A stretch of DNA of 53,144 nt from a virus (taxonomy: Duplodnaviria > Caudoviricetes). The position numbers were made by a program, and so were the translations under genes. Under the pieces are notes generated by a model. It worked only from the letters and a program-made list of their open reading frames with translations. It made no database searches and was not told the origin of the DNA. Shown here piece after piece: positions 3,810-27,841 of this stretch. Positions within the stretch are counted from its first letter, which is position 1. Every line of letters starts with the position of its first letter. The DNA is taken from IMG/VR virus record IMGVR_UViG_3300019875_000001, positions 1-53,144 of that record; one strand, given 5' to 3'.

Positions 3810-4180
3810 GTGACCATAACCCTTGTTACTCCCTGATGAAGAGAACGTACACCATCATGCAGCATAGAATCAACCACAGGATTAACTCCCTGGATGACCC
3901 TCGAACCCGCTGTGCCCGAGAAGCCACACAGGTAAAGCTTAGCGGAATCACGCACCGTACCAGCACTTTCAAAGTCCTTAGCCCATACATTAACTTGTAT
4001 GATTGTCTGCTGGACCCCACTGAGCCCAGTCAAATGTTCCACCTCTTTAACCGTGATCTCCTGCACGGTAACGTAGGGGAAGGTAGCGGAAGGAGGCAGG
4101 GGCACTGGCGAGATTCCACCCAGGCTAGACGTGAAGTGGCCTTTTAGGAGTTGTATCACCTCAGCTACAAAAGTGTTCAC
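3800..4180 (-). CDS. Tail terminator/completion protein
   Basis: Position in the operon; FPYVTV...IQVNVWAK pattern. Confidence 0.65.
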   Translation of the reverse strand: MNTFVAEVIQLLKGHFTSSLGGISPVPLPPSATFPYVTVQEITVKEVEHLTGLSGVQQTIIQVNVWAKDFESAGTVRDSAKLYLCGFSGTAGSRVIQGVNPVVDSMLHDGVRSLHQGVTRVMVTWG

Positions 4181-5012: not shown

Positions 5013-5572
5013 AGGTCAGCCCTCTCCCAGTCCTTGAACACTTTCTCACACCAGCTGGGCGTATCGTAGACAAGCTCAGCCATATCAAATACAGACTCGT
5101 CAAGCACCAGATCACGCATAGCCTTGGCAGCTGCGCGCATCTCTTTAGCCATCGCTGGACCATCCGTCTGCAAGTCCAGGATCTTGATCTTTTTGAGGAT
5201 CAGGATCATATTGACCGCCATAGCATCTAGACAGTCAGCAGCAATAAGCTTGGTGTCACCAATGTTGCCGTCCACATCAGTGTTGGCATCGATGATGTCT
5301 TGAATCGTGGAGTCAAGCAGAATAACCTGATCGTACCGGAATACGTAAATACCCGCTGAGGCACCACTGCCAAAGAGGATACGGCCATTCTGCGCATCGG
5401 TGAGGGTAAATGATGGAGCCGAGCCGCTTGGAGGTGTAATTATTACGCTTCCAGCGACCACGGGGAAGTACGTGGTTTGGAACGTCAGCTGCCCCGCAAC
5501 CGCAGTGATATTACTCGTTTGGAAGAGGGGCTGATCCTGTATTAAGGAGCGTATCTGAGTGATGAGAGACAT
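5009..5572 (-). CDS. Head-tail connector protein
   Basis: Position after capsid; QIRSLIQD...AADCLDAMA...DLQTDG. Confidence 0.6.
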   Translation of the reverse strand: MSLITQIRSLIQDQPLFQTSNITAVAGQLTFQTTYFPVVAGSVIITPPSGSAPSFTLTDAQNGRILFGSGASAGIYVFRYDQVILLDSTIQDIIDANTDVDGNIGDTKLIAADCLDAMAVNMILILKKIKILDLQTDGPAMAKEMRAAAKAMRDLVLDESVFDMAELVYDTPSWCEKVFKDWERADL

Positions 5573-7445: not shown

Positions 7446-8909
7446 TTAGTACTGCCCCGTTGCGTACTTCAAACCAGCTTCCGAGACACCCAGCGCTTTC
7501 AAGTCATTCTCGAAACGCTTGTCCTCTTCAGCTTCCTTGGCCTTGTTGCGACCGCCCTCGTGAACCCCAAGGTGCTGTTCACCCATCCCAGTTACCGCAC
7601 CGGCAGACTCGCCAACATCCACGAGATCATCCGCCACTGCTTTGGCCCACACCAGATCGACTTTGCCATCGACCATTTTGGGGGACTCGCACACCCGCTC
7701 AAGCAATGAGGGCTTGATGGTGAAACCAGCCTCCCGCACAATTGCACCCACAGCCGCCATCCCAAGGATGCGGTTCTGAGTGGATTCATAGACCCGATTA
7801 CGCGCTTCTGATGCTGCCAGACTATCGCGCAGGGTCTGAATTTCCTGGTCCGTCAATGCTGCCATCGTCGTGTTCTCCTTTACTACCGTCGTTGGGGCAC
7901 TGCCCCGCTGCGATTCTGTAACCGGGACAATTGGGGCACCGCCCGCTCCTGCCTTGGTCACATAGTCTACTGAGTAAGCCCGTGTGAAAGCTTCCGCAAT
8001 AAGTCCTGTACGGCCTCCCACACTGCCCTCATTGGCCTTAATGGCGGCATTGATAGACACGCCAATGTAAGGACCTTTTTCCTTGATCTGCTCCGAGTGG
8101 TCAGAGAACAGCAGGGCATCCCCATAGAGCCCCGCACCCTTGGGACCGTTCTCATTCCAGTAGGCATCACCATTCAAGACACTGGCGAGCGAGTTGAGAT
8201 CACCCTCAGGCCGATCAGCCTCCTCCGCTTCAGTAGCATGATTGATAAACATCTGGGTGCCCTTCTTGAACGCCTTAGGCCCCGTGTTCATGATCATCTC
8301 TTTGGAGTAGTAGGCGCAAGAGCCCCACCCAGGCTTGATGATGCAGACAGGGATAGTGGTCTTGCCAGCCTCATAGACGCGGAATCCGCCCTTGGCCTGG
8401 GCTTCACCAGTCTCCGTAACGGGCCAGCAGAATTCAACGCTCTCCCTGACCACTTTGGACCCATCGTCAAGCGTAATTATTACACTTTCCTGCCCGCCAA
8501 GAGCTTTATACCAGCCCTCATTCTCTTCCAGACTTGAGTCAGGCGCATCCATAAGAACGCGCATAGACTCCTTTTCACTGGCGGAGGAGACATAGGCAAC
8601 GTGAACCTTCTTAGCATCCCCAACTGTGACGGCTGGGTCACTTCCAGCAGCACCTTGAGTAACTGTATATTTTCTCTTGTAGTTTTGGCCCCCGTGACTG
8701 TACACCACATGCTGCGGAAACACGTCACTAACCCATGGACCAGAGCTATCATAAGTGTTGCTCACCCCGTGAGCGGACATGAGGGCCGTGCGTAAGTGGC
8801 CTCTGAGCGCATCGTGCGATTGATTCATGGGCAAAGCCGCTTCAGCCGTCTTGTAGATCTTTCGGCTTATATCAGCCACGTCCACCTTTGCTTTGTAAAA
8901 GGGAAGCAT
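7446..8909 (-). CDS. Prohead protease/scaffold
   Basis: IIKPGWGS..YY, MFINH, IGVSINA, SVDYVTKAGAGG followed by a helical tail; between portal and capsid. Confidence 0.75.
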   Translation of the reverse strand: MLPFYKAKVDVADISRKIYKTAEAALPMNQSHDALRGHLRTALMSAHGVSNTYDSSGPWVSDVFPQHVVYSHGGQNYKRKYTVTQGAAGSDPAVTVGDAKKVHVAYVSSASEKESMRVLMDAPDSSLEENEGWYKALGGQESVIITLDDGSKVVRESVEFCWPVTETGEAQAKGGFRVYEAGKTTIPVCIIKPGWGSCAYYSKEMIMNTGPKAFKKGTQMFINHATEAEEADRPEGDLNSLASVLNGDAYWNENGPKGAGLYGDALLFSDHSEQIKEKGPYIGVSINAAIKANEGSVGGRTGLIAEAFTRAYSVDYVTKAGAGGAPIVPVTESQRGSAPTTVVKENTTMAALTDQEIQTLRDSLAASEARNRVYESTQNRILGMAAVGAIVREAGFTIKPSLLERVCESPKMVDGKVDLVWAKAVADDLVDVGESAGAVTGMGEQHLGVHEGGRNKAKEAEEDKRFENDLKALGVSEAGLKYATGQY

Positions 8910-8932: not shown

Positions 8933-10756
8933 CTATCGTTTAGCCCCGGCTAATGGACTTCCAGAAGGCTTAGGAGTCACCTTGGGAACAGGTTTAGATG
9001 CTGTTTTCATTGCAGCATCCGCAGATTTGAGAGCCGCATCGCCAATATCCGCCTTGCCCTGAGCCACTAAATGCTCGTCATCAACTCTGTCGGCAGGATC
9101 AGCAAAGCCCTGCAATACAGGCTCAGGATACATCAAATCGGTGATTCTCTCCGCATTCTCTTGTCCGAGGGCCTCAAGCAAAAGCTGGCAAACTACCTTC
9201 CTATCAGGGAAGATACCCTCTGCTGGACTGCCTCCCATGGTAACGGCCTGAACCAGAGAGCGAACTCGATCAGTGACATCCCGCTCTAGGATGTTGGGGA
9301 ACTCGATCTCCACATTTGTTGTCTCTTCCCCAGGCGGAATAACCGTAATAATTACAGTTCCGTCGAACTCATCGCGGGACTTTTCCACCCTAAAGCCAGC
9401 CTTGTTCAGCTTACCTCCTGGTGCCTCAGCACTCCATTCAATCAGCCGCGTGCAGAACGCCTGGATGACGCCCGCCCATAGATCTTGGCGAGAAACCATC
9501 TTAAGCTCAGTAGGGCGGTCAAGAGTGGTGGATGTGGCAAAGTTACCGATATCAGAGTCACCGAGGAAGTGTTCAGGCGTATCTGATCCTGCAGCGACCA
9601 TTGACCGTAAGGCCCTCGCCTCATCAGGCCCTGTGGTAGATCCCGCTGTCTTAATCGGCTGGACATTAGCAGCACCTGACATTAACGCCCAACTTGCTGT
9701 ATTCGTGGGCGGATTGGTATCCCTCAACTGGCCATTATTCACGCCAGTCTTAAGCTTGTTCTTGCTGGCAGCTACGCCAGCTTTACCCGGTAATCCAGAG
9801 ATTTGATAGGCCAGCCGCGCATATGCGGCCAGAATGGTGGCGAAGTTCTCCAAGATGCGCTTATACCCTGTAGCCCAGTTCAGAGCTGAGAATAGCTCAG
9901 GAAGGCCAAAACGCATCATATCCAGCCCACCAGTTCTCAAATGGTAGGTACAGGTGGTCCAGTCAATCCGTGTGCCGTCTGGTGCCTTATTCGGGCGAGT
10001 AGTGGGGTAGTAATCCCAATCAGGGTAGAGAGTATTCTGCTTTACTACATCCGTGGCTATTTCATCCTGGAGTATGAAGCCTGAAGACATGGCTCCAATG
10101 TTAGAAGTGCGGGCATAGAAGCGGGGCTCTTTCGCGTCTTCGGGGTTGTAAACGATCCCCTGTATCTGATCGAACGGTAGGAGACGGACACGAGCGGCCC
10201 CGTTTTGCTTGTTGCGGTAAAAGACAAAGAACTGGTTACCGTCAACCCTCTGTTGTCTTTCCCTTTCTGGCCAAGCGTCCCCAATAACACGCTGATTCTT
10301 GCGATTCTTAAAGAAGTCATCGAGAACCTCCTGAACTACCCCATTCTCAGCCGTGATCTTGACGCCACGGCCCCAGACATATAACTCCTGTACCGTGACT
10401 ACCCTCTTGATAAGAGGGTTGATCAGATACATCACGCGGGAGAGACTAACGATTCTGCGCAGTGTAGTGCGGTTAAAGTTGAATGTGGTGCTGGGATCAC
10501 CACCAATCCAGCCCCTATCCTCACTGGCAAAGGATGCTTCAAGCTCAGAGAAGGCGCTTTCAAAGACTTGGGTGAACTGCTTGGTCAGGCCATCCTGAGA
10601 GCCAATCTCAGGCATACCGGCACCACTTGAACCCCCGCCGCCCTGGATTAGAGCCTCCTCAGCCAGATCAGCCGTCGCCCGCATGTGATTAGCGCCAAGA
10701 GAGGCACCAGTTAGCCCGCCCACGAGCCTATCGCGCAATCCACTGAAAAATCGCAT
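8933..10756 (-). CDS. Portal protein
   Basis: 607 aa just downstream of TerL; NPLIKR, DGNQF, RFGLPE, P.HFLGD...NFAT. Confidence 0.8.
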   Translation of the reverse strand: MRFFSGLRDRLVGGLTGASLGANHMRATADLAEEALIQGGGGSSGAGMPEIGSQDGLTKQFTQVFESAFSELEASFASEDRGWIGGDPSTTFNFNRTTLRRIVSLSRVMYLINPLIKRVVTVQELYVWGRGVKITAENGVVQEVLDDFFKNRKNQRVIGDAWPERERQQRVDGNQFFVFYRNKQNGAARVRLLPFDQIQGIVYNPEDAKEPRFYARTSNIGAMSSGFILQDEIATDVVKQNTLYPDWDYYPTTRPNKAPDGTRIDWTTCTYHLRTGGLDMMRFGLPELFSALNWATGYKRILENFATILAAYARLAYQISGLPGKAGVAASKNKLKTGVNNGQLRDTNPPTNTASWALMSGAANVQPIKTAGSTTGPDEARALRSMVAAGSDTPEHFLGDSDIGNFATSTTLDRPTELKMVSRQDLWAGVIQAFCTRLIEWSAEAPGGKLNKAGFRVEKSRDEFDGTVIITVIPPGEETTNVEIEFPNILERDVTDRVRSLVQAVTMGGSPAEGIFPDRKVVCQLLLEALGQENAERITDLMYPEPVLQGFADPADRVDDEHLVAQGKADIGDAALKSADAAMKTASKPVPKVTPKPSGSPLAGAKR

Positions 10757-14442: not shown

Positions 14443-14697
14443 CTAGTATCCGGCGAAGCACATAAACACGTCCCAGGGAGACGAGCAGCCACAACCAATC
14501 GTGTCCACCCCACCCTTCTGGGTAGTCTTGTTCTTGTCCGAGGGTCGTTTATGCCCTGGGCAAGACGCCTGAGGATTATGTTTGTTCTTCGGGCACGCAT
14601 GGTTAATGTGGTCATGAGCGTACACGGGTAGAACACCCAAGGACCCGTAAGCGATAAAGAGCGCGGCTGCGACTTTCAGGACGACTTTGCGTTTCAT
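14443..14697 (-). CDS. Small exported Cys/His-rich protein
   Basis: GGAGG SD; MKRK plus hydrophobic helix and VYA-like cleavage site; HDHINHAC...CGC...C. Confidence 0.6.
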   Translation of the reverse strand: MKRKVVLKVAAALFIAYGSLGVLPVYAHDHINHACPKNKHNPQASCPGHKRPSDKNKTTQKGGVDTIGCGCSSPWDVFMCFAGY

Positions 14698-14866
14698 GTA
14701 ATGCCTCCTAGACAAATGTACCATAAAATACAAGGAGATGCAACTTGAATACCGCTCGGATAGCCCGCTGACGCGGTCAATCCTCGCTCCGCTCTCCTCC
14801 ATTCAGCGTTGCGCATAAATCTCCTCCCCCTCTTCTCTATAACTCATCTCCCCCGCCTCTGGTCTT

Positions 14867-14895
14867 ATTATATCATGTGAATCAACATCTGTCAA
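14867..14895 (-). promoter_or_regulatory. Consensus sigma70 promoter (leftward)
   Basis: TTGACA-17 nt-TATAAT with an AT-rich upstream tract. Confidence 0.85.
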
Positions 14896-14983
14896 TATAT
14901 TTGTTTTATTTGGGTCAAAAGTGTAATTATTACGCTTTTGGGCTATTTCGCACTGCACTTTTAGTATTTCTGGTCGATTTTTC

Positions 14984-15012
14984 TTGACTCGTGCTAGTTT
15001 TCACCGTATTCT
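14984..15012 (+). promoter_or_regulatory. Sigma70-like promoter (rightward, divergent)
   Basis: TTGACT-17 nt-TATTCT before the GGAGG SD of ORF 15032. Confidence 0.6.
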
Positions 15013-15031
15013 GTGATCGGAGGTTATCCCA

Positions 15032-15376
15032 ATGCTTCGCGTACAGACCACTCTCTGCCCTTCCTGCAATCGGAACGTACCCGTCTCCGATGGCGTTTGC
15101 TACAACTGCGGTAGCCCCACCTCCACCAGCACTTTTGTTGAGACTGATGGGACTCTTGGGACTCCAGTCAGCCCTATTACGGTGCTATCCCAATGGCCTA
15201 AGGCCAAATGGGCCATAGATCTCGACAAGACTCTCAGCGCCATGCAGATGCAAGCCAGCTGTGATAAGGTTCTTGATCTAATCGAGAAGCAGGCTCGCCG
15301 GGATATGAAGAGTATGCAGGATATGGTTGATCACGGCACTCGCTTTCAGGATATGTCGGGTAGTTATTACCGCTAG
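15032..15376 (+). CDS. Zn-ribbon protein
   Basis: CPSC...CYNC; SD GGAGG. Confidence 0.65.
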   Translation: MLRVQTTLCPSCNRNVPVSDGVCYNCGSPTSTSTFVETDGTLGTPVSPITVLSQWPKAKWAIDLDKTLSAMQMQASCDKVLDLIEKQARRDMKSMQDMVDHGTRFQDMSGSYYR

Positions 15377-15529
15377 TAGGCTCACTGGTACGGTTTATCA
15401 GGACCACTGCCCCGAGGGAGAGAGATAGAGAGCGCTTGTCGCCGATAGGTCATGAGCGAGGGGAACGCCGAATAACGAAATAGGTCAGTTCCCCTTCCCA
15501 TCTTCAGTTTATTCCTCCTATCTGATTGC

Positions 15530-15673
15530 TTATCTGATCATCTGACTCAATACCAGGAAGAATACTCCTAGCCATCCCAGGCTTAACCTCGATGGGGGAG
15601 CGGTTGGTACTCCTGCCGCTGCGCATAGCAGGCAGACCAGGGCTAGTAGCTGTAGGATAATCGTTGGATTCAT
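15530..15673 (-). CDS. 47-aa two-helix membrane protein (below the ORF-track cutoff)
   Basis: GAGGTG SD; MNPTIILQLLALVCLLCAAAGVPTAPPSRLSLGWLGVFFLVLSQMIR. Confidence 0.6.
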   Translation of the reverse strand: MNPTIILQLLALVCLLCAAAGVPTAPPSRLSLGWLGVFFLVLSQMIR

Positions 15674-16166
15674 ACATCACCTCAACTGTAATTATTACAC
15701 TTTTGCTTATTCCTCTTTTGGCCTTGGCTCCCTGAGTAACCTCGTCTTTTCTGCTCGGCTGCCTATGTAACCTCCCCCCGATCGCCTGTGCGCAGGAGTC
15801 ACATTCGCTCGTTTGTGACTCCCATCTTTCCTATTAGCGCCATCGGGTGAATTCCCGCTATCCGTACTACTATCTACTCAATGTAATAATTACACTCCTA
15901 GCGAGCATTGCGCTTTAGCGCAATGCGAGCGGCTCAGGGCGCACGCTAGGCCAGTGCACCCGCAAGTACCGGACACATGCGGTCAATCGATCCTAGAGCC
16001 TGCTAGGCACAAGTACGGCACCCTGTACAATCGCTCAGTGAGTGCATCGCGGCGGGTCAAATCGACCAATCGATCTAGTGCGCCACTATGGGACTAACTC
16101 CTATGCCGAATGGACCATAGACTAACGCCTAGAAAAATCAGAAACATACACCACTTGAAAGTGTGC

Positions 16167-16247
16167 TGTGGAAAACTCTGTAACTTTTTACTCTTTCTGT
16201 GGAAAACGCAATCTTTCCTGTGGATAACCGCGATATTCTGTGGATAA
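16167..16247 (-). promoter_or_regulatory. Four co-oriented DnaA boxes (candidate origin)
   Basis: TGTGGAAAA at 16167 and 16198, TGTGGATAA at 16219 and 16239; all match TTWTNCACA on the minus strand. Confidence 0.7.
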
Positions 16248-16280
16248 AAAAGGCGAAATTGAGGCGAATAGACCAGTATA

Positions 16281-17040
16281 GTCGTGTGATGGCACGACCA
16301 AACACGCATAGTATGAGAGACAAAATAAAAATCGAATGTGGCGAACGAGACACCACACTACGGAATGGCTCAGGGACTAGACCTGAGAACGCGCTAACCG
16401 ACAAAGGGAACAGTTACAGATCTACATTACGGCGAGATCCTAACACCTGAACTCATAGCCCCGTGATAAGCGGATAGTATGAGCACTCCTCGCATGATGT
16501 ACCCTGCGCGATACATACACTACTACGCCTAGAGGTGCTGTAACCCGAACGGGACCTAGGCGTACGGTGTCAAATAAGGTCATAAGAGAACCGCGATAGC
16601 TTGAACAGCGGTATGGATCTACACTAAGAGCCTAATGACTAGCGCCTGAGTGCGCGATAGGCTATGGATACGTAAGGCGGGAGTTTAGCTTACGTGTAAG
16701 CCCCGGTGATGAATCGGGCAGACAGAGAACCCAGGGCGAAAGCTTAATTAGCTGGGCCTCACTGAATCCAGAGATTGTAGAAGGTCTAGACCAATAGACT
16801 GAAAAGTGCTTAGGGCGGACGGCCCTAGACATGAACATGGATTGGGTAGTGGAAAGAGTAAACGGAGTAAGTGAATCGGTTGTATTGAACGCCACGTTAT
16901 ACGGTGATTGTCCACGGACAAGAGTACAGCGCGGGTAGTAGACAGACTGATATCGAATAGCTCTAGGTAACTGGCCACGATAAAGATAACCGTAAATATT
17001 ACACTTTAAGCGGACGGTGCTGGTATAGGCCGTCCGCTTG
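16281..17040 (+). ncRNA. Candidate large structured RNA (family not identified)
   Basis: No credible plus-strand ORF; more than ten local stems and nested long-range pairings. Confidence 0.4.
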
Positions 17041-17103
17041 TATTTATTCCCAACACAGTAGACTACTCGCCATCAGTGAGTAGCCTATAGGGGGAGTAAA
17101 CGT

Positions 17104-17289
17104 ATGTACTTGGTATGCGACATAGGAACCAATGAGAACATTAGCTCACACAGAGTGCTTAGCAGAGCCGTAGCTAAGTGCAGGCAGTTGATTAGCACTT
17201 GCATTCTATGGGAATGCGCCCACTGCTATGCAATCTATGACTTACACCTTAACCAGTGTCCATCTTGCAAGACTAAGAGGGAGAAATAG
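17104..17289 (+). CDS. Small Zn-ribbon protein
   Basis: CAHC...CPSC; GGAG SD. Confidence 0.55.
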   Translation: MYLVCDIGTNENISSHRVLSRAVAKCRQLISTCILWECAHCYAIYDLHLNQCPSCKTKREK

Positions 17290-17478
17290 ACATGAACTTA
17301 ACGCCGGTCGATTCAATCGCAGTATTCGCAGTGCTCATAGCCGTATACGCGATAGGCAGAGCCTACAAAGTAGCCTGCCCGAGTAAAGCTAAGCTGTACC
17401 GTAAACGCTGAATACCTCAGGTGCTATCACTCAATGCCAGAGTGATAGCTCTTGTCTATTCAGACACACAGGAGGAAT

Positions 17479-17946
17479 ATGAATAACATGCAGTTAGCTC
17501 TGATTCACTCCAGCGCTAACCCTAAGCCTGGAGAGAACAACCAAAGACTAGAGTTCCTGGGAGATGCAATCTTAGAGTTGATAGTCTCCGAGTATCTCTA
17601 CGCTAATCACCCCAATATGAATGAGGGTATGCTGTCAATCGCAAGGTCTAACTTTGTGTGTAAGGCTAATCTTGCGGCTGTAGCTTGCCGAATGGGACTA
17701 GGAGATAGGCTGATTCTGGGTAAGGCTGAACTTGGCCAGCAAGGTAAACATAAGCCTAGTATCTTAGCTGACGCAGTAGAGGCGCAGATTGGAGCTATCT
17801 ATCTGGAGTATGGGATGGAGACAGCTAAGAAGTTTGTTTATCAGTGGGTGCTGGGGTGTTCAACACCCAAGGTAGACATTGAGAACTGTGATCACTGCTG
17901 GAGAGTACTAGCTAGGCAACAAAGCTGTTGCCCATTCCACTTCTAA
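17479..17946 (+). CDS. rnc: Ribonuclease III catalytic domain without dsRBD
   Basis: ALIHSS, NQRLEFLGDAIL signature, EG.LS..RS, LADAVEA.IGAIYL; start may be 17488. Confidence 0.92.
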   Translation: MNNMQLALIHSSANPKPGENNQRLEFLGDAILELIVSEYLYANHPNMNEGMLSIARSNFVCKANLAAVACRMGLGDRLILGKAELGQQGKHKPSILADAVEAQIGAIYLEYGMETAKKFVYQWVLGCSTPKVDIENCDHCWRVLARQQSCCPFHF

Positions 17947-17974
17947 CCGTAATTATTACGCTTTTGGAGGATAA

Positions 17975-18259
17975 ATGCAGACAATCGAATTAGAGGTAGG
18001 TTACGGACATAAGAGCAAACATGAGCTTAAACAGTTCCGCAACCCTGTAGGCTTAGCCGAGATGATACGCCACTGTGATAGTAACTCTCACATCTGGTTT
18101 AAGTCTCTTGACGGCACAGCTAGGAGGGCCAAAGTGAACGGCAAGGTTCGCACGTGGAAGAGAGATCCAGGGCGAATAGAGATACCAGTCAAGTACGGAA
18201 TGTATGAGTACGGCGTATTCAGTGCTTCAGATATTGACCGTATCTTGATCGAGATTTAG
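17975..18259 (+). CDS. Hypothetical early protein
   Basis: GGAGG SD; ORF. Confidence 0.65.
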   Translation: MQTIELEVGYGHKSKHELKQFRNPVGLAEMIRHCDSNSHIWFKSLDGTARRAKVNGKVRTWKRDPGRIEIPVKYGMYEYGVFSASDIDRILIEI

Positions 18260-18307
18260 TTAACTACTAGGCTGGACTGAGAAGTCCAGCCAATGGAGGA
18301 TAACTTA

Positions 18308-18676
18308 ATGAAAGCATCATTCGACCCAGAGTATGCGTATCATCTGGGTTACCATGACGGGTTAGAAGACGGACACAAAGACCCTAAGAGGGATTTCACC
18401 ACAGCTAACAAAGACGCGCGTACTGTGGCCTACTTTGCAGGGCTGAAAGTGGGCATGGCCCAAGCTCAGAAAGAAGGGCTTGATATGAGGTGTCTAGTGC
18501 GGTGGGATAACCCAGGATTCGACACACCCCCGTGTGAGAGTAAGTCTCACTATCTGGCCTTTGCGTATGGGCATGTGATACCCCTTTGCATACGGCACGC
18601 ATTCAAGATATTCCTTGACACTGAGGGCAAGCCTGACGCTACCCAGTGGACAATTATCCCCAAGGATTGGATTTAG
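18308..18676 (+). CDS. Hypothetical early protein
   Basis: SD supplied by the upstream hairpin element. Confidence 0.6.
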   Translation: MKASFDPEYAYHLGYHDGLEDGHKDPKRDFTTANKDARTVAYFAGLKVGMAQAQKEGLDMRCLVRWDNPGFDTPPCESKSHYLAFAYGHVIPLCIRHAFKIFLDTEGKPDATQWTIIPKDWI

Positions 18677-18758
18677 GAGGTGTCAATGAAACTGTAAGAG
18701 CCGCTGAGGGCTAGCTAGTGGTTATGAACGCTCCCTAGTTAGCCCCATGAGGTAACTT

Positions 18759-19070
18759 ATGAATTTACCAAGTGTGAAGACGTTGGAGCCTATCACCCGA
18801 GATAGGGAAGCCGCTAAGAAAGTGCGGCGATTGTTGGAGGGTGTACGGCTAGGTCCAGTAACTACAGCCTTGATGAGGATTGATCAGGAAGACTTGATAC
18901 CACGGGGTTATGGGGTTGAGACTATACGCCGAGGTGAGGGCAAGAAGTCGCCGGGGATTCACTATATCAATCGGGGTGATCCGTATGTCTCAACTCTGAT
19001 GTATATCGAAGGGCTAGGGTTTAGGGTAGGGTGCTGGGGTGACATTGTGGAGCGGGGCAAGTACAAGTAA
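18759..19070 (+). CDS. Hypothetical early protein
   Basis: GAGGT SD; YINRGDPYVSTL...WGDIVE. Confidence 0.65.
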   Translation: MNLPSVKTLEPITRDREAAKKVRRLLEGVRLGPVTTALMRIDQEDLIPRGYGVETIRRGEGKKSPGIHYINRGDPYVSTLMYIEGLGFRVGCWGDIVERGKYK

Positions 19071-19106
19071 CTCACTAGGCTACGGTGAAAGCGTAGCCAA
19101 TGGGAG

Positions 19107-19295
19107 ATGCTTATGACTTTAGATGACGCAGTATGTGAGGCTCACAAAATTGCCAATAGCAGTGGGGTTAGTGTCCTGGTGTACAAGGCTACCCACAATG
19201 ATTTGGGTGAGTATGGCGTAGCCTACACTTTGCCCATGTGGGGTGAGAGGGTTGGAGACAGGATTTATCCTGGTGGAGATACTCATGAGCTTTGA
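19107..19295 (+). CDS. Hypothetical early protein
   Basis: ORF after a hairpin element. Confidence 0.5.
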   Translation: MLMTLDDAVCEAHKIANSSGVSVLVYKATHNDLGEYGVAYTLPMWGERVGDRIYPGGDTHEL

Positions 19296-19515
19296 CAAGA
19301 TTGCAGCGGTTTACGTGTGGTGCTCTGATAATCACAGTGGCCAGTGGTCACGAGGTTACCGGATCATGTCACGCATAGCCAAGATGAGAATCAATCTCAC
19401 TGATAATGCCTGGGAGGCTATACAGTGCGGCACAGGCCGAGGTAAAGATGAATGGGCTGAAGCTAGAGAGATGTATCTCAGGTTGAGTCTAATGAAGTTG
19501 AGACGGCCAGTTTAA
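19285..19515 (+). CDS. Hypothetical early protein
   Basis: GGAG SD; HSGQWSRGY motif. Confidence 0.55.
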   Translation: MSFDKIAAVYVWCSDNHSGQWSRGYRIMSRIAKMRINLTDNAWEAIQCGTGRGKDEWAEAREMYLRLSLMKLRRPV

Positions 19516-19691
19516 TCACTAGGCTAGGCTTGCGAGTCTAGCCAATGAGGTGAAACTATGGACAGGATAACGGTGATTATGACTGGTGACCCTCCCCCAG
19601 GCGAGTATGAAGAGTGGAAGAATGGGCAGTGGGTAGCCTGCAAGTAATCCGCTAGAAAGCGTAATTATTACGCTTTCGCTGAGGTTTGCTT

Positions 19692-19850
19692 ATGTTTGAA
19701 AGTTTGAAGGGAACAGTATTACCATTCGCTCTTGTGTTCGCTATTGTCATGTATCTGACTGTAGCCTTAACCGACAAGTTCATGAAGTGGCTGGATAGGC
19801 GCAAGTGGAACAGGATCTTGCGTACCATTGATTGGCCTAAAGAGAACTAA
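19692..19850 (+). CDS. Small membrane protein
   Basis: GAGG SD; one hydrophobic helix. Confidence 0.45.
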   Translation: MFESLKGTVLPFALVFAIVMYLTVALTDKFMKWLDRRKWNRILRTIDWPKEN

Positions 19851-20069
19851 ATGGTATACAGCTATATCATTTCCTATTCAAAGGGCACAGGTTTTGCCTT
19901 TGACGGTATACAGCTGGATAGGTACGTAACCCAGCTGCTAGTAACTGGGATTCCAGCTGAGGAGATAGAGATCAAGGTAAATACAGCAAACACATCTAGA
20001 AAGTAACTCACTAGGTCTAGCCGTGAGGTTAGACCAATGGGGGCTACTGCCCACCAGGAGATTAAACGT

Positions 20070-20321
20070 ATGGCTGATATGACATTCGCAGATTTGAAGA
20101 AAGAGTATGCCCGTATACAGGCCGAGAATGCTTCCTTGAAAGCACGCTCACAACGGGCTATAACCATGAAGGTGAGTGAGAAGGGAGGGCTGTCCCTGTA
20201 TGGTCTGGGCAGGTTCCCAGTCACGCTCTACCATGAGCAGTGGACTAAGCTGCTAGCCATGGCAGAGGATATCAAGTCCTTCATCGAAGAGAACAAGGAC
20301 TCGCTCAAGTCCAAGGAGTAA
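20070..20321 (+). CDS. Conserved hypothetical protein
   Basis: KVSEKGGLSLYGLGRFPVTLY..QW, recalled as a recurrent small-protein family; AGGAG SD. Confidence 0.7.
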   Translation: MADMTFADLKKEYARIQAENASLKARSQRAITMKVSEKGGLSLYGLGRFPVTLYHEQWTKLLAMAEDIKSFIEENKDSLKSKE

Positions 20322-20323
20322 TC

Positions 20324-20569
20324 ATGGAGGACTTAGAGAAGCAACTCAAGGCATCTCTGGGTAAGCTGCTGGCTCCTCTCCGTAAAGAGCATGATAAGGC
20401 TGTGAGGCTACATGCTGAGCATAAGCTCAAGGCTGAACAGTATTACGCCCAGTCAAGATCCATCGGGGCTAAGATCCGGGAGATTGAAAAGGCTGTAGGT
20501 ATCAAGACTTGGACTCAGCGTAAGATGGCTAAATTTGAGGAGCGGAGCGACGTTACCCCGAAGGGGTGA
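20324..20569 (+). CDS. Hypothetical coiled-coil protein
   Basis: AGGAG SD; coupled to the upstream gene. Confidence 0.55.
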   Translation: MEDLEKQLKASLGKLLAPLRKEHDKAVRLHAEHKLKAEQYYAQSRSIGAKIREIEKAVGIKTWTQRKMAKFEERSDVTPKG

Positions 20570-20657
20570 CGGAGCGGGTCCAGAGTCACAGGCTAGAGGG
20601 TGCTGAGAAGTGCCCTCAATGACTGTAATTATTACGGTCAGAACGAATGGAGAGTGT

Positions 20658-21839
20658 ATGAATAAACGACAGACGGCACGAGTAAACCTTGTGACGGCCA
20701 GCAGAGAATGGGCTTCACGCCCAGCAGACCAGCGATTCTGGACCCTGAGAGAGTTATTCGACAGGTCCAAGAAGTATGCAGAGGAGAGCTATATCCACAA
20801 GGTAGAGCTATCCGGTACCACTGCTGTAGCTCAAGGTGGTGATCTGGTCCTAGACATTGGGACATCAGATCCCGCGACATTCCAGCATTACAGCTTCGGA
20901 CAGCTTTGCAACATTGCCGGGGCTCCTGCTGGATATCTGCGAGGGTTACCAGCTGGATTGGCTGCTGAGAATCTCAATCACGGCCTATCCCACACTGACG
21001 GCGAACAGGTTCTCATGCTTCACAAGAATGGGGATCATGTGCTGAGGTGTGTAACCTCTAACGAGTACAGCCGAATCTGGAACTATGAAGTTGCAGAGAT
21101 GGCATTGGCTCTTGAGGAGGGTGAAGGCTGGATGACACCGCCAGCAAGACCCTGTGGCATCCAGGGGATTCCATCTCGCCGCGCAACCGCTGATGATGTA
21201 CTCCGCAAGAGTGCTCATCCAACTCTGGGTATCGAGATTGGTGATGAGATCTCACCGGCTGGGCTGTACGCTTCGGATCATGATTGCTTTATCTTCCAAG
21301 TCAATGAGGATCACCCGATTGACGCGGGAGGTGGAGAGATGCTCTACCGTGGCGTGTTTTGGAAGAACTCTGAGGTTGGTGATGCGCGATTCACTGGGAC
21401 TATGTTCCTCTATGACACGATATGCGGTAATCATATCGTCTGGGGGGCTAAGATCATTGCAGAGATCAGCATACCTCACCGGGGCAATGCTAAAGAGATC
21501 TTCCGTGAGGCCATGGCGATAGCAACTCATAACGCTTTAGCACCGGCAAGTGAGGATGAGAATCGTATTCAAAAGGCCAAGATGTATGAGATCGGCCCAG
21601 GTCAGCCTGAAGTAATCAAGGCTGTGTTTACCAAATTCTCCGGTTACATCAGCAAGCGTGAGTGTGAAGACGCTTACGTCATGGCCACTCGCCACGCTGA
21701 GGATCACAACACTGAGCCCAACACGGCATGGGGTTATGCCTCTGGGATCACTCGCTTATCACAGGGTCAGCACGCGGACAGCAGAGATAGGCTGGACCGT
21801 GTAGCTGGTCGGGTTTTGGAGATGGCTCTAGTTCGCTGA
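20658..21839 (+). CDS. DUF932-family protein
   Basis: W.SRP.D.RF..L, SFGQLC..AGAP.GY, LYASD.D.FIF.V, RG.F..NSEVG, C.NHIVWG. Confidence 0.8.
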   Translation: MNKRQTARVNLVTASREWASRPADQRFWTLRELFDRSKKYAEESYIHKVELSGTTAVAQGGDLVLDIGTSDPATFQHYSFGQLCNIAGAPAGYLRGLPAGLAAENLNHGLSHTDGEQVLMLHKNGDHVLRCVTSNEYSRIWNYEVAEMALALEEGEGWMTPPARPCGIQGIPSRRATADDVLRKSAHPTLGIEIGDEISPAGLYASDHDCFIFQVNEDHPIDAGGGEMLYRGVFWKNSEVGDARFTGTMFLYDTICGNHIVWGAKIIAEISIPHRGNAKEIFREAMAIATHNALAPASEDENRIQKAKMYEIGPGQPEVIKAVFTKFSGYISKRECEDAYVMATRHAEDHNTEPNTAWGYASGITRLSQGQHADSRDRLDRVAGRVLEMALVR

Positions 21840-21894
21840 GCCACTTCATCAGGGCATCCTGGGGAGGGTGTCCGAATGGAGTAAGGAGGTAGTC

Positions 21895-22092
21895 ATGCGA
21901 GATAAAGAGAATAGTGTTCCTTTGAGTGCGGCTGAGTTCATCAAAGTGATAGATGAGCTTACTCTACCTGGAGCGTATCCCAAGGTGCGAGAGATTGCCA
22001 CGGTGTTACGGACTGCTAAAGACGGCAGACTAACCCAGAATGCAGTTTACAAAAAGCTGGGCCTCATTACAGGGGAGAGAAAAAAGCCGTGA
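21895..22092 (+). CDS. Stand-alone paralog of the ParB-like protein C-terminal domain
   Basis: AAGGAGGT SD; 19/56 ungapped identities to the C-terminus of 23195..24496. Confidence 0.75.
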   Translation: MRDKENSVPLSAAEFIKVIDELTLPGAYPKVREIATVLRTAKDGRLTQNAVYKKLGLITGERKKP

Positions 22093-22261
22093 TCAAGGGG
22101 TGCCCTAATGGAGGAAGCATGGGATTTACAGACCTAGTGAGGAATCAGGTTATCCCTGCTGTGAGAAACCTGTACCTCAGATCTATAGCAGAGAGTAACC
22201 CAAAACAGGCACGTAGACATGGGGATCTATACAGTGCTCTGCTGAAATGGCTGGAGGATAG

Positions 22262-22438
22262 ATGATCAAGGTAGCTGGATTGCTGTATTTGACTGGGTTT
22301 ATCACCCTGTTGATACCCAGCTTATTCAACTGGCTCAACGAGTCTCACCCGCTCAATCTGCTGGTGTTTTGGTTGGTGGTGGTGATACTTGTTATCGCCA
22401 CAGTCATGATCATGTTAGTGGGGAGGCCAAGACGATGA
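22262..22438 (+). CDS. Small two-helix membrane protein
   Basis: GGAGG SD; two hydrophobic stretches. Confidence 0.45.
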   Translation: MIKVAGLLYLTGFITLLIPSLFNWLNESHPLNLLVFWLVVVILVIATVMIMLVGRPRR

Positions 22439-22599
22439 AGTGCAAGTGTGGGCATACGCTCGGGGATCATATCATTGAGGACGACTATTCGGCATGTGTG
22501 GGTGACATACCTAACGGTGCCTTGTACGTCACATCCTATACCGCAACCTGTGACTGTAAGCGATTCGCGCTAAAGGAAGAGCCTGTATTAGTTCAGTGA
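22435..22599 (+). CDS. Small Cys/His protein
   Basis: ATGA overlap; CKCGH...H...C...CDCKRF. Confidence 0.5.
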   Translation: MKCKCGHTLGDHIIEDDYSACVGDIPNGALYVTSYTATCDCKRFALKEEPVLVQ

Positions 22600-22917
22600 G
22601 GCTTGAGTCAAACTGTAATAATTACACTTTGGCTCTGGCACCGCTCAGGTATCAATACACTATACCTTAAGTGGCTTGGCTTTACGCGTTCAAGGAACGC
22701 TCTAAAACCATTATACCAAGCTGTGTCAAGCTTTGTCTAGGGGGAATATGCACAATTTACAAATCTTTACAAAGGGGGTACGCTATGGCAGTGTGGCTAG
22801 TGTCTATACGGCGTGAGGGCTATGAGGCTCTGCCTTTTACAGGCTCTGAGCTTAAAGAGGCTCTGACGTTCAATGCTGAGAACGGTAGTATACTCATCCA
22901 GGTAGAAGGGAGTCAGT

Positions 22918-23052
22918 ATGAAGTTCTTGGAATCATACGCAAATACACTCTCTAGGCTGTGGTGCCGCATGTTTCACCGGCATATCACAAGAGCGGTCAA
23001 CGGGCACTACACTTGCTTGTCCTGCTTCAGGCGCTATCCCTGCAACTTCTGA
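22918..23052 (+). CDS. Small Cys/His protein
   Basis: GGAG SD; LWCRMFH.HI...VNGHYTCLSCFRRY. Confidence 0.5.
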   Translation: MKFLESYANTLSRLWCRMFHRHITRAVNGHYTCLSCFRRYPCNF

Positions 23053-23118
23053 CATTCAGACACAGGCGTAATAATTACACTTTTTGCTAAAGTGTTGATA
23101 ACGCTCTGTCGATTTCTG

Positions 23119-23147
23119 TTGACTCCAGGTCACCATGCGGCTAGACT
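23119..23147 (+). promoter_or_regulatory. Sigma70-like promoter of the ParB-like gene
   Basis: TTGACT-17 nt-TAGACT. Confidence 0.65.
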
Positions 23148-23194
23148 GGTTTCAACGGCAACAAACTAGCCGATCAAAGAGAGGAAAAAAGAGA

Positions 23195-24496
23195 ATGACA
23201 CCTGGATTGAACGATACGATCATGCTTACCCCAGCTAACCTGCTGGTCACCAAGAATACCCGCTTCGGGCTGTTGCCCGTGAAGGTGAAAGATCTGGCAG
23301 AACAGATCAAAGACGCCGGGCAGGTTAACACCTACCTGACGGTTGAAGAACTGGCAGAGCCGGGTCCTAGTGGAGAGACTCACTGGTTACGCGAGGGCCA
23401 TTACCGTAAGGCAGCTGTCGAACTGCTGGCCAAAGAAGGGTTGGAGATTCCTCTACCCTGCACGGTCGTGGAACCTCTGGAGGGTGTAAGCCGCACCAAG
23501 CACCAGATCTCGGAGAACTGGCACCGCACCGATTTGACGCCCATGGACATGGCCGTTGCAATCGATGAACTGCTCCACCCTGTGGACGGTAGCGAGGGCA
23601 TGAAGAAAAAGCGGGTGTGCGAACTCTTCTCCCGCGCTGGTGGTCGTAAGGGTCTGGCCATGGCCCCGTTGAGTAACTCAATGCTCAACATCTACCTCAG
23701 CTTCCTCCTGTTCCCCAAAAAGATTCAGCAACTCATCCACGAGGGCAAGATCGGGGTCCTCAAGGCTCACTTCCTCAGCAAGAAGGACAAGAGCGAATGG
23801 GATGTGGAACTGAAAAAGGCAGAGGATGCGCGTGAGGCTGAGATCAAGCAGTTTGAGGACTTGGAAGCTTCCTTTGTCGCCGACGAGTTGAAGGCGGTAG
23901 AGGACGACAAGAAAGCCAAAGAAGCCGCTGAGGCTCTCATCAATGCGGAGAAGATTGCAGCTGACGCTAAGGCCACTGCCGCCGACAAGCTGAATGCTGC
24001 CGCTGATGCCCTTAAAGCTGCTGGTGCCGTACCCGCCGCTGACAAGGAAAAGAAGAAAGTGGCTCAGGAGCAGTTCAAGGCTCGTGAAGCTGAGGCCAAG
24101 CAGGCTGAGAAGGAAGCCACTGAGAAGCAAGCCGCTGCCGACAAGCTCAAGCAGAAAGCAGAGAAGAACTTGCTGCTGGCTAAAGAGCGGGCTGAGAAGC
24201 TGGACAAGGCTCGCAAGGATGCCCAGGCCAAGCTTGCTGGTAAGAAGCTGGATATCGGCGGGGCTGAACCCTCTGCCCCTGGTGATGGTAAGGTCAAGCT
24301 CAAGGGGCCTGAGATCATCAAGCTTGCGGAACAGATGGCTCTTGCCGGGTCCTTCCCCAAGGTCGAAAAGATCTTCAAGGCCTTCCTCCGCTGCATTAAC
24401 TCGGAGATCACTGATGCTCAACTCACCAGCGAATGCGGTTGGATCACGGGAGAGCGTAAGGACCGCCCGAAGCACCTTCCTAAAGAAGTCAAATAG
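23195..24496 (+). CDS. ParB/Srx-family protein with HTH region, long K/A/E coiled coil and C-terminal domain
   Basis: LAEQIKDAGQV..L.V, EGHYRKAA (GxxR-like), SENWHRTDLTPMD, PKKIQQLIHEGKI. Confidence 0.8.
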   Translation: MTPGLNDTIMLTPANLLVTKNTRFGLLPVKVKDLAEQIKDAGQVNTYLTVEELAEPGPSGETHWLREGHYRKAAVELLAKEGLEIPLPCTVVEPLEGVSRTKHQISENWHRTDLTPMDMAVAIDELLHPVDGSEGMKKKRVCELFSRAGGRKGLAMAPLSNSMLNIYLSFLLFPKKIQQLIHEGKIGVLKAHFLSKKDKSEWDVELKKAEDAREAEIKQFEDLEASFVADELKAVEDDKKAKEAAEALINAEKIAADAKATAADKLNAAADALKAAGAVPAADKEKKKVAQEQFKAREAEAKQAEKEATEKQAAADKLKQKAEKNLLLAKERAEKLDKARKDAQAKLAGKKLDIGGAEPSAPGDGKVKLKGPEIIKLAEQMALAGSFPKVEKIFKAFLRCINSEITDAQLTSECGWITGERKDRPKHLPKEVK

Positions 24497-24921
24497 ACTT
24501 CCTCTACAGGGGGCTCTTGCGAGAGTCCCCGATAGGGTTAACGCTTTTGAGGGATTAGACACCCCTCCCTCTACGCCCAGACTGGTAGGTGTGTGGCTCT
24601 TTCTCTGGGAGGCCGCACAGGCGTTAACCCGTAATTATTACACTTGGTGGTCTGCCCCATAGCCGTAAGGATGGGGCTAGGCTGAAAATCAGCTGTAACG
24701 AGGACGCCCAGCGACTTTCACGCTGCAAGCGTAAAGCCTTACAGCGGGCCACCCGAATTTAAATGGAGGGATCATGCTTAACATTGCTGTGGCCGTGCTG
24801 ATGACTCTTGCTTTCTTGGGGACGCTGTACGATCTGCTAAAGCCTTGGCGGGATAAGAGGTTTGAGGCACGCTGGAAACGAAAGAGGGGGCTCTGAGGGG
24901 AGGGGGCTCTAAGCCCCCATC

Positions 24922-25140
24922 CTACCGTGGTCCTAGTCCTCCCTTCCTCTTCCCAGCCAGCTTCACATGCTCATCCAAGTCGGTTAACAGGGTGTCCAAT
25001 AGATCCACACTGCGCCTGACCCTCTTACGGATGAAGTTCCTTTCCAGTTGACCCCCAACATTCATGAAGTGCCGTTTAACTCTGGGGTCTACTGCGTCTA
25101 TCTCAGCTTTCGTTAGTGGTTTCATTTTCCTCTCCTTCAA
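24922..25140 (-). CDS. Hypothetical basic protein
   Basis: Last ORF of the leftward block; start may be 25125. Confidence 0.5.
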   Translation of the reverse strand: MKERKMKPLTKAEIDAVDPRVKRHFMNVGGQLERNFIRKRVRRSVDLLDTLLTDLDEHVKLAGKRKGGLGPR

Positions 25141-25167
25141 GTGTAATTATTACGGTTATCTTGACAC

Positions 25168-25196
25168 AAAAAAGCGGGAGGCACTGAGCCCCCCGC
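25168..25196 (-). terminator. Intrinsic terminator
   Basis: GCGGGGGGC...GCCTCCCGC followed by T6. Confidence 0.65.
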
Positions 25197-25217
25197 ATAA
25201 GTGTTAGGGAAGGTTAT

Positions 25218-26225
25218 CTATTCGGCCACGAACAAGCAGTCCAGATGCACGATGGGGATTGTTAGCCACCTGTTCTGCATGTCTCTGTAGTCGGTAAACG
25301 GGAAGCCGTTCTGGGGGTTAAACTTCCCGAATCTGCACCCGCTTCCAATTACGGATGCCTTGAATGCCAGCCACACATCCAGGGCCTCTTGAGTAGTTCC
25401 TCCTACTCTTTGTGCCACTGTTGTAGCGGGGTTTTCAATGTCCCACCCAAAACCGTACTGGTGAGTCTCCGAGGTAGACAGAACACCCCACGAGGGTAAG
25501 GCGTAGCCTAATCCCCCTTCAGCGAAACGGTTGTCACCCCACCCTCCGTTAGGCAGTGTTCCTGTCATTACGCGCGGAATGATGCCGTGCGAGTTTCCTG
25601 CATATATGGCGAAATTGTACATCATGACTTTTATCATGTGTACAGATACGGCCTTGCCATACCTGGAGTATCCAGGCTGACCATTTTGGTCCCAGTGTCT
25701 GGTATCCACGGGAGAGTCTAACGGCCCCGTATAAGCGTTTGCTGTCAGTGGGACGAAAGGATGGGGGTTGCCGCTGTAGTCATAATCCGACACCTTGAGC
25801 CGATTGAACCATGTAACGGTGGGCAGATTGTCGGTGATGTGGCTACCCTGCATTGTGGTGTCAATGATCCCGCTGAAGTTTGCATTCCTGTATGCGAAGT
25901 CTGGCGTACATGCTTCTGTGCCAGCTGCATTTAGAACCGTGGTCATTGTGATAGGGCTTTGGTACGAGCCAACAGGCCGCGCCACCGAATCAAAGAACTG
26001 GTGAGTGTGCCAGTCCGTTCCAGCACGCATCTGGGTGTATACATCAATTTGTTTCCCAGGCAGTGGGGTTTGAGTGAAAGGTGGTGTTAGTGAACGTCGT
26101 GCGGCGCAGTACGAGTGATACATAGTCTTCCACGGCAGCACGTTCTCGCCTTCGGTAGGTTCTTGAGCCATTGCCGAGAACAGGCAGAGTAGAAAGCAGA
26201 TAAGTAGAAGTGTTGAGGTTTTCAT
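25218..26225 (-). CDS. Exported protein
   Basis: MKTSTLLLICFLLCLFSAMA-QE signal peptide. Confidence 0.7.
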   Translation of the reverse strand: MKTSTLLLICFLLCLFSAMAQEPTEGENVLPWKTMYHSYCAARRSLTPPFTQTPLPGKQIDVYTQMRAGTDWHTHQFFDSVARPVGSYQSPITMTTVLNAAGTEACTPDFAYRNANFSGIIDTTMQGSHITDNLPTVTWFNRLKVSDYDYSGNPHPFVPLTANAYTGPLDSPVDTRHWDQNGQPGYSRYGKAVSVHMIKVMMYNFAIYAGNSHGIIPRVMTGTLPNGGWGDNRFAEGGLGYALPSWGVLSTSETHQYGFGWDIENPATTVAQRVGGTTQEALDVWLAFKASVIGSGCRFGKFNPQNGFPFTDYRDMQNRWLTIPIVHLDCLFVAE

Positions 26226-27766: not shown

Positions 27767-27841
27767 GTGGGTTTCTCTCTTTCCAAACCGTAATAATTAC
27801 ACTGGGGAACCCGTTAGAGTCCCCCAGCACGGGACTACCTA

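Follow-up and report, generated by a model that had tools for sequence, protein, structure and literature searches.

Repetitive extragenic palindromic (REP)-like intercistronic hairpins of bacterial operons can stop 3′ exonucleases and confer stability on individual segments of an mRNA. In phages, early mRNAs are known to be processed either by the host RNase III, as in T7, or by unrelated nucleases of the phage itself, such as RegB of T4. The T7 early precursor contains five RNase III signals, and bulges or internal loops make RNase III cut a single strand, so that a stabilising hairpin is left at the 3′ end, according to excerpted text of PMC3867540, in which RNase III enzymes lacking the double-stranded RNA-binding domain (dsRBD) are also described as capable of active, site-specific cleavage. 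RegB, an endoribonuclease made by the phage, cleaves intergenic initiation regions of early mRNAs (excerpted text of PMC3014915). Here we analyzed an uncultured soil phage, a virus record of 53,144 bp from IMG/VR (IMGVR_UViG_3300019875_000001, completeness estimate 96%; this whole stretch of DNA is referred to as the window), in which a sequence-only reading had pointed out six similar RNA hairpins between genes of a presumed early operon. What is new here is an RNase III domain encoded by the phage at the head of the operon, beside hairpins that share a frame of flanking nucleotides. In one collection of papers searched in full text, no description was found of an RNase III encoded by a phage together with cognate hairpins between cistrons.

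A strand-specific RNA hairpin in the spacers of one operon

The minus strand of the window codes for terminase, portal, capsid protein, family-A DNA polymerase and helicase. The plus strand contains, at about 15,000–25,200, a block of small open reading frames (ORFs), the majority of which have no family match. Judged by gene content, these operon genes are probably early.

The six hairpins (W1 to W6, Table 1) were read in the window exactly as first described. They sit between same-strand ORFs, in spacers of 43–89 nt, and each downstream gene has its own strong Shine–Dalgarno sequence (SD). The position after a stop codon was borne out, the gaps from stop to stem being 10, 7, 6, 7, 26 and 12 nt for W1 to W6; in most copies of the three genomes that carry the frame, the gap is 6–7 nt. 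The frame described for them, CTA-hairpin-AATG, is exact in five, and the sixth, W6, has the variant TCA...GAATG. The SD said to follow directly is present in five (GGAGG-like or GAGGT-like, 3–4 nt past the stem) and missing at W5. G-U pairs, described as a persistent feature, occur in four of the six hairpins and are lacking in the other two. The loops were described as mostly GNRA, which roughly holds: three are strict GNRA loops (GAGA, GUGA and GAGA), the 7-nt loop at 19085 includes GAAA, and the others are UGCG and GGGG. As reported, U-tails are absent. Direct reading showed no T-run after any of the six, none of which is among 12 terminator-like sites, and an intrinsic-terminator test returned hairpins without a U-tract, their 3′ flanks being AATGGAGG or similar.

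Both strands were scanned for hairpins with a stem of at least 7 bp including G-U, a loop of 4–7 nt, a 5′ flank ending in TA and a 3′ flank beginning with AAT. The scan found five on the plus strand, all within 18270–20617, and none on the minus strand. The chance level for both strands, from 30 dinucleotide-preserving shuffles, was 0.43 on average and 2 at most. When the window was searched exhaustively with a covariance model (R1), filters off, the six hairpins scored 38–53 bits, and all else 18.2 bits or less. No copy of the element was found in a search over 43 kb of minus-strand genes. Rfam 15 gave no matches over the window at the gathering threshold; the four matches at E ≤ 5 in 15500–25500 were far below gathering, and none lay at the hairpins. 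Eleven promoter-like sites were found in 14500–25500, none inside the six hairpin spacers.

Pairing was analyzed in an alignment (A2) of 12 copies, six from the window and six from locus L004 of the relative G001. The loci of relatives named here are L004 and L009 in genome G001, L006 and L012 in G003, L010 in G004, and L011 in G002. In A2, seven of the nine pairs were altered on both sides, in agreement with the covariation first claimed. Stem cells were paired in 99.1% of cases, compared with 29–44% when partners were slid (all 10 pairs). The covariation score was 0.79, compared with 0.24 in shuffles (0 of 500 reached the observed value) and 0.08–0.13 with partners slid. Compensatory changes were also seen at an orthologous spacer: W1 and its L004 counterpart precede the same gene (90% identical), and differ by changes from G-C to A-U and from A-U to G-U.

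Among stem pairs, 36 of 206 were G-U, and these were present in 19 of 22 measurable copies (23 listed, from three genomes). In all 20 copies compared, the sense strand gave a more stable fold than the antisense strand (mean −13.7 vs −8.2 kcal/mol), which identifies the element as one acting at the RNA level. Covariation in A2, G-U counts and strand folds together uphold the structural claim of a fixed-length covarying RNA hairpin in a fixed frame with G-U pairs. They show that the hairpin is a sense-strand RNA element under strand-specific purifying selection for pairing.

The upper stem is 9–10 bp long and free in sequence, with a stability of −10 to −17 kcal/mol, and several loops are of the GNRA or UNCG type. 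At its base, the helix has a conserved irregularity formed by CUA/NNUG, either an asymmetric internal loop or a bulge of 2 nt. Counting from the apical loop, the second pair is C-G in each of the 13 copies tabulated for the window and L009. The third pair is G-U in three of the six window copies and in all six L004 copies, and U-G in four of seven copies from the more distant L006 and L012. The AAUG flank persists at W5 and its orthologue although no SD follows there, so AAUG is part of the hairpin unit and not a mere extension of the SD. A lower stem is evident only in W6 and in a weak relative, W7. In the single folds of W1, W2 and W6, the SD and the 5′ flank were base-paired. Occlusion of the SD by a lower stem was tried as a general feature and rejected, the probability of the SD being paired being 0.73 vs 0.61 with shuffled flanks.

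The number of hairpins was understated at first, as the same operon contains extra copies or looser relatives at 18708–18745, 19655–19677 and 24509–24530 (Table 1). The 3′ flank of the hairpin at 18708–18745 is similar to the frame of the L006 type.

Table 1. Hairpins and RNase III gene of the plus-strand operon, in order of position in the window
Feature	Coordinates	Hairpin	Strand	Description	z	Bits
RNase III catalytic domain	17479..17946		+	155 aa, no dsRBD (Pfam); heads operon, upstream of W1
W1	18267..18295	18270-18291	+	CTA-GGCTGGACT-gaga-AGTCCAGCC-AATG, then GGAGG, ATG 18308	-5.1	51
Variant hairpin, one small ORF on each side	18708..18745		+	11-bp stem, 16-nt loop, then CATGAGG / CATGAGGTAAC, ATG 18759	-2.7	8.6
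W2	19075..19102	19078-19098	+	CTA-GGCTACG-gtgaaag-CGTAGCC-AATG, then GGGAG, ATG 19113	-4.2	41
W3	19519..19547	19522-19543	+	CTA-GGCTAGGCT-tgcg-AGTCTAGCC-AATG, then GAGGTG		46.7
Hybrid	19652..19680	19655-19677	+	CTA frame, 9-10-bp stem topped by genome-wide GTAATTATTAC palindrome, then GAGG, ATG 19693	-3.3	14.4
W4	20011..20039	20014-20035	+	CTA-GGTCTAGCC-gtga-GGTTAGACC-AATG		52.9
W5	20593..20621	20596-20617	+	CTA-GAGGGTGCT-gaga-AGTGCCCTC-AATG, then GTAATTATTAC palindrome at 20625, SD only later		44.3
W6	21849..21878	21852-21873	+	TCA-GGGCATCCT-gggg-AGGGTGTCC-GAATG; predicted 7-bp lower stem ACUUCAU/AUGGAGU	-4.2	38.3
W7, weak relative after ParB-like gene	24509..24530		+	GGGGGCTCT-tgcg-AGAGTCCCC, 2x2 loop, 5-bp lower stem	-2.1	18.2 (E 0.009)

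A phage RNase III and its co-occurrence with the hairpin frame

The protein encoded upstream of W1 matched the RNase III families PF14622 (E 1.6e-33, 116 bits with a cut-off of 35) and PF00636 (E 4e-25, 89 bits), and a Pfam search of it for the dsRNA-binding domain (dsrm) gave no match. It contains the signature LEFLGD and the motif ADAVEA. Residues E25, D29, D98 and E101 are invariant across the three phage homologues, and we take them to be equivalent to E41, D45, D114 and E117 of the E. coli enzyme. Among the solved structures of the PDB, the protein matched canonical RNase III and Drosha domains, with no Mini-III-named chain among the 42 matched sequences. Past its own cluster and four short proteins, the nearest relatives are full-length bacterial RNase III proteins with a dsRBD (PF00035), at ~50% identity. 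By these comparisons, the phage protein looks like a truncated classical RNase III and not like a member of the Mini-III lineage. RNase III is rare in phages: 13 of 50,697 records matched, and several of these are fragments.

The last ~30 residues of the window protein (17860–17946) form a Cys/His-rich tail (CDHC...CCPFH). The L004 and L006 homologues end earlier, and a few metagenome proteins (L061–L065) match the query through residue 155. The tail may be a small zinc-binding module in place of the dsRBD. The leader of the gene (17408–17463) contains an irregular hairpin with a 10-bp core (17423–17449) and lower helices of 4 and 7 bp, followed by a T-rich run (−27.7 kcal/mol, z −3.5), and is conserved in L004. 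This hairpin could terminate transcription of the small ORFs upstream, or it could be a target through which RNase III regulates itself, as the leader of E. coli rnc is.

G001 is 70% identical to the window in the 393-aa protein used as the comparison anchor, and contains eight copies with the same frame and other stems. R1 found eight matches in G001, all in one 3.5-kb stretch, two of which (in L009) were outside the training set. No R1 matches were found in 688 kb of unrelated viral DNA picked for the flank pattern (80 loci listed), nor in the complete RNase III-less genomes G002, G004 and G041. Pattern scans of viral contigs, for the flank pattern and for the palindrome described below, gave single chance matches among the matches listed. 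The W5 orthologue in L004 has one bulge, and that of W6 lies at 8193–8244 of L009 (22.4 bits). An orthologous weak match to W7 was found at 10709–10755 of L009. For the G003-type copies, MAFFT gave a sensible alignment for three of seven.

An alignment of RNase III, used as the query against viral contigs, revealed homologues only in G001, in a contig near-identical to G001, and in G003; the single protein as the query gave no match there. RNase III was absent from G002, from all 36 further records sharing the anchor, including the complete G004, and from five terminase relatives, including the complete G041. Without a model, CTA-hairpin-NN(N)TG was counted six times in the window, five times in L009 and eight times in L012, always on the operon strand, and at most three times in any other locus with both strands taken together (1.2 Mb scanned in total, in which L048–L050 are G001 and G003 again or near-identical DNA). 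Among the loci scanned, the CUA...NNUG frame was found only in the three phage lineages with an RNase III gene. The RNase III alignment also matched 80 loci in metagenomes, none with more than one CTA-framed hairpin. These loci are probably mostly cellular, given their long contigs and matches with a dsRBD.

Processing by RNase III, one of the roles suggested in the sequence-only reading, is partly supported and has a real clue in its favour, because the phage encodes an RNase III at the operon head and the frame was found only in carriers of the gene. We tentatively propose that the hairpins are processing and stability punctuation, cut at the conserved base loop by the phage RNase III, and regard this as a serious possibility somewhat short of even. 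The hairpins would punctuate a polycistronic mRNA of small genes, filling the 43–56-nt spacers between stop and SD, and CUA/NNUG at the helix base would be the recognition and cleavage site of the dsRBD-less enzyme. If the cut fell on the 3′ side of the base, the upstream cistron would end in a protective hairpin, and the downstream cistron would be set free with a new 5′ end a few nucleotides away from the SD. The logic would be that of the T7 early RNase III signals, with the enzyme supplied by the phage as T4 supplies RegB.

A more specific version, possible but rather doubtful, is that of a self-contained system, in which a dsRBD-less phage RNase III acts on its own minimal hairpin substrates of ~10 bp and recognizes them by the CUA/NNUG loop and the near-apical wobble pair. 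Processing of the operon would then do without the host enzyme, and would travel with each gene cassette. Should the enzyme prove to cut the hairpins, they would represent a minimal substrate for a dsRBD-less RNase III domain. Enzyme and site would then form a compact pair with which synthetic operons could be insulated and processed, and gene cassettes would be seen to bring their own processing signal when moving between phages.

Several observations weigh against cleavage by the phage enzyme. The three genomes with RNase III are at the same time the closest ones by anchor (70% and 66% identity, vs 61% and 57%), and the link between enzyme and frame may for this reason reflect a single gain or loss. 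The complete close relatives G004 (L010) and G002 (L011), which lack RNase III, also show the order stop, hairpin and SD, with other flanks, so the basic role of the hairpin there cannot need the phage enzyme. The G003 copies score just ~12 bits with the window-type model. The contiguous helices are short, at 9–13 bp, and cellular RNase III substrates are up to ~20 bp (excerpted text of PMC3867540). Pairing of the flanks under the stem is about that of shuffled 5′ flanks (−8.45 vs −7.14 kcal/mol, 21 copies).

The hairpin is thus a trait of the clade, and the frame alone tracks the enzyme. The family at 5258–6455 of L010 has the form GACATA-stem-NNUGAGGUGAC with a conserved GUGACAG loop, its frame also being given as GACATA...UGAGGUGAC. 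The family at 3951–5412 of L011 has the frame GCGAAA-(ACAC...GUGU)-CGGGAGA. A Pfam search for another nuclease in 10 early ORFs of L005, which is RNase III-less, found none.

Other features of the genome

DNA runs of several soil metagenome studies contain a sequence identical to the window. A search for RNA runs covering 17400–22100 listed none. Compensatory variants were sought in contigs of four soil DNA runs, in which the listed pieces were exact window matches and hence uninformative; one X8 contig among the soil pieces showed only a partial fit to the window. A DNA search of a phage collection with 17900–22400 gave just two weak 156-nt matches. A tRNA and tmRNA search found none, and a PHROGs scan of large ORFs without assigned function found no RNA polymerase.

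The anchor protein of 393 aa (20658–21839) has a weak DUF932 match and a phrog_1362 match, and a 453-aa protein (23135–24496) matches a ParB-like partition PHROG. Conservation of the two extends to at least 39 viral contigs or to L009. A stretch of ~1.4 kb (15700–17100) separating the divergent gene blocks has no convincing ORFs, but shares blocks of 72–84% identity with L009 and is thus conserved. Three TGTGGA(T/A)AA words, which resemble DnaA boxes, occur in it within 55 nt of sequence (16198–16250). The stretch could be an origin of replication or a region of non-coding RNA. Near-perfect sigma-70-type promoters with a TG extension were found on the minus strand at 14867–14895 (12 of 12 matches) and 22710–22739 (11 of 12). 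The latter faces against the plus-strand operon, and could produce an antisense RNA.

A near-palindrome, GTAAT-N-ATTAC, occurs at 39 sites in the whole window with at most one mismatch, compared with 0.33 expected; the looser GTAA-NNN-TTAC occurs at 41. Examples lie at 1368, 7425, 14923, 17949, 19661, 20625, 27790, 48280 and 50888. The palindrome is often extended to AAAGYGTAATNATTACRCTTT, is found in both orientations, and mostly stands immediately upstream of gene starts. Many of the genes concerned have their ATG 3–5 nt further on with no SD (e.g. TGTAATTATTACGctttATG), and others have a short leader and an SD. The palindrome looks like a DNA-level element because many sites form an RNA stem of just 3–4 bp. 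It resembles a promoter for near-leaderless mRNAs, or the operator of a dimeric regulator. The variants GTAATCATTAC and GTAACGATTAC are found in L004, L006, L005, L010, L367, L368 and L370. On the minus strand, a 14-bp hairpin (27799–27830) immediately precedes a GTAATTATTAC site, in the same order as at W5 (20596–20635).

Alternative readings and comparison with known systems

The hairpins might instead be passive, serving as a barrier to 3′ exonucleases, a 5′ stabilizer after host cleavage, or an insulator of the SD context, with the phage RNase III directed at host RNA, defence RNAs or its own leader. We consider this unlikely, though several observations favour it: the analogous hairpins at the same positions in RNase III-less relatives, the stable stems with several GNRA or UNCG-type loops, and the helices, which are shorter than the typical RNase III substrates described in the excerpted PMC3867540. 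The 21-bp irregular hairpin in the leader of the RNase III gene could then be the real target. It leaves unexplained why CUA/NNUG is conserved within genomes despite the free stems, and why precisely the genomes without the enzyme have another frame. If the hairpins are not cut, they would still be a clean natural case of covarying intercistronic stabilizer hairpins with fixed stop and SD spacing.

Translational coupling or gating is a further reading, which we think has little probability. Here, looping out of ~22 nt would juxtapose the stop codon and the next SD for re-initiation, or a lower stem would hide the SD until the upstream ribosome arrives. The constant spacing suits such a role, with the stop 6–7 nt 5′ of the helix base in most copies of the three genomes and the SD beginning 3–4 nt after the stem, as does the pairing of SD and 5′ flank in the single folds of W1, W2 and W6. 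However, neither flank pairing nor SD occlusion rose above the shuffled-flank controls overall (0.73 vs 0.61 for the latter, as above), W5 and its orthologue lack an adjoining SD and have their stop 26 nt away, and a strong SD precedes every downstream gene.

It is also improbable that the hairpins are cassette junctions at the DNA level, in which the flanks and folding core would act as recombination joints for small ORFan genes, a role proposed for the promoter-early stem-loops (PeSLs) of T4-type phages (excerpted text of PMC2839356) and, more remotely, for integron attC sites. Homology between the window and G001 does begin or end at hairpins. W4 has the same stem as an L004 copy (88% over 49 nt), yet the neighbouring genes on both sides differ. 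G001 has one additional gene flanked by two hairpins, and a G001 hairpin separates two conserved genes that abut in the window. Intergenic joints are, however, expected of any viable recombinant, the repeat flanks are ~8–10 bp vs ~100 bp for PeSLs, and the strand-asymmetric G-U pairs and GNRA loops indicate RNA. No recombinase was found by Pfam and PHROGs among the selected ORFs scanned. A role as cassette junctions may be compatible with one in RNA.

Attenuators or terminators without a U-tract, setting an expression gradient along the operon or closing a unit before a promoter-like palindrome, are very unlikely: W5 and its orthologue directly precede the GTAATTATTAC site, a similar hairpin-plus-palindrome pair stands at 27799–27830 (−), and PeSL stem-loops have been shown to terminate (excerpted text of PMC2839356), but no T-run follows any copy, and the SD within 3–4 nt of most copies leaves no room for a promoter, so that efficient termination would silence the next gene.

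Among known systems, the T7 early RNase III signals are similar in being intercistronic hairpins of an early operon, with an irregularity placed for a single-strand cut, which would leave the upstream message with a stabilizing hairpin at its 3′ end and release the initiation region downstream (excerpted text of PMC3867540). T7 relies on host RNase III, whereas this phage encodes a dsRBD-less one, and cleavage here is a prediction. A signal of the T7 type is about two helical turns of irregular duplex, its upper and lower stems flanking an internal loop. The helices here are much shorter, with an upper stem of 9–10 bp and the conserved asymmetric loop but no demonstrable general lower stem, and there are at least 6–8 copies per operon, compared with five in T7.

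T4 RegB and its GGAG sites likewise involve an early phage endoribonuclease and the phage's own intergenic initiation regions, as described in the excerpted PMC3014915; here such a role is proposed. RegB is a Barnase-type, sequence-specific single-strand RNase, inhibited by secondary structure. The enzyme here has an RNase III domain, and its candidate site is a structured hairpin beside the SD, not inside it.

Mini-III of Bacillus and relatives is also a lone RNase III catalytic domain, which can act site-specifically without a dsRBD (excerpted text of PMC3867540). By contrast, the closest full-length relatives of the phage protein are the dsRBD-bearing bacterial enzymes at ~50% identity noted above.

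The PeSLs of T4-type phages are, by the excerpted text of PMC2839356, repeated stem-loops between stop and SD, located in plastic regions of small ORFans and at indel boundaries, as are the hairpins here. A PeSL is ~100 bp long and includes a strong sigma-70-like promoter, whereas the spacers here have no promoter-like site. REP-like hairpins share with those of the window their stability and their place between cistrons. Unlike these, the hairpins described here stand in a fixed frame abutting the SD, keep a fixed spacing from the stop codon, and are confined to one phage operon.

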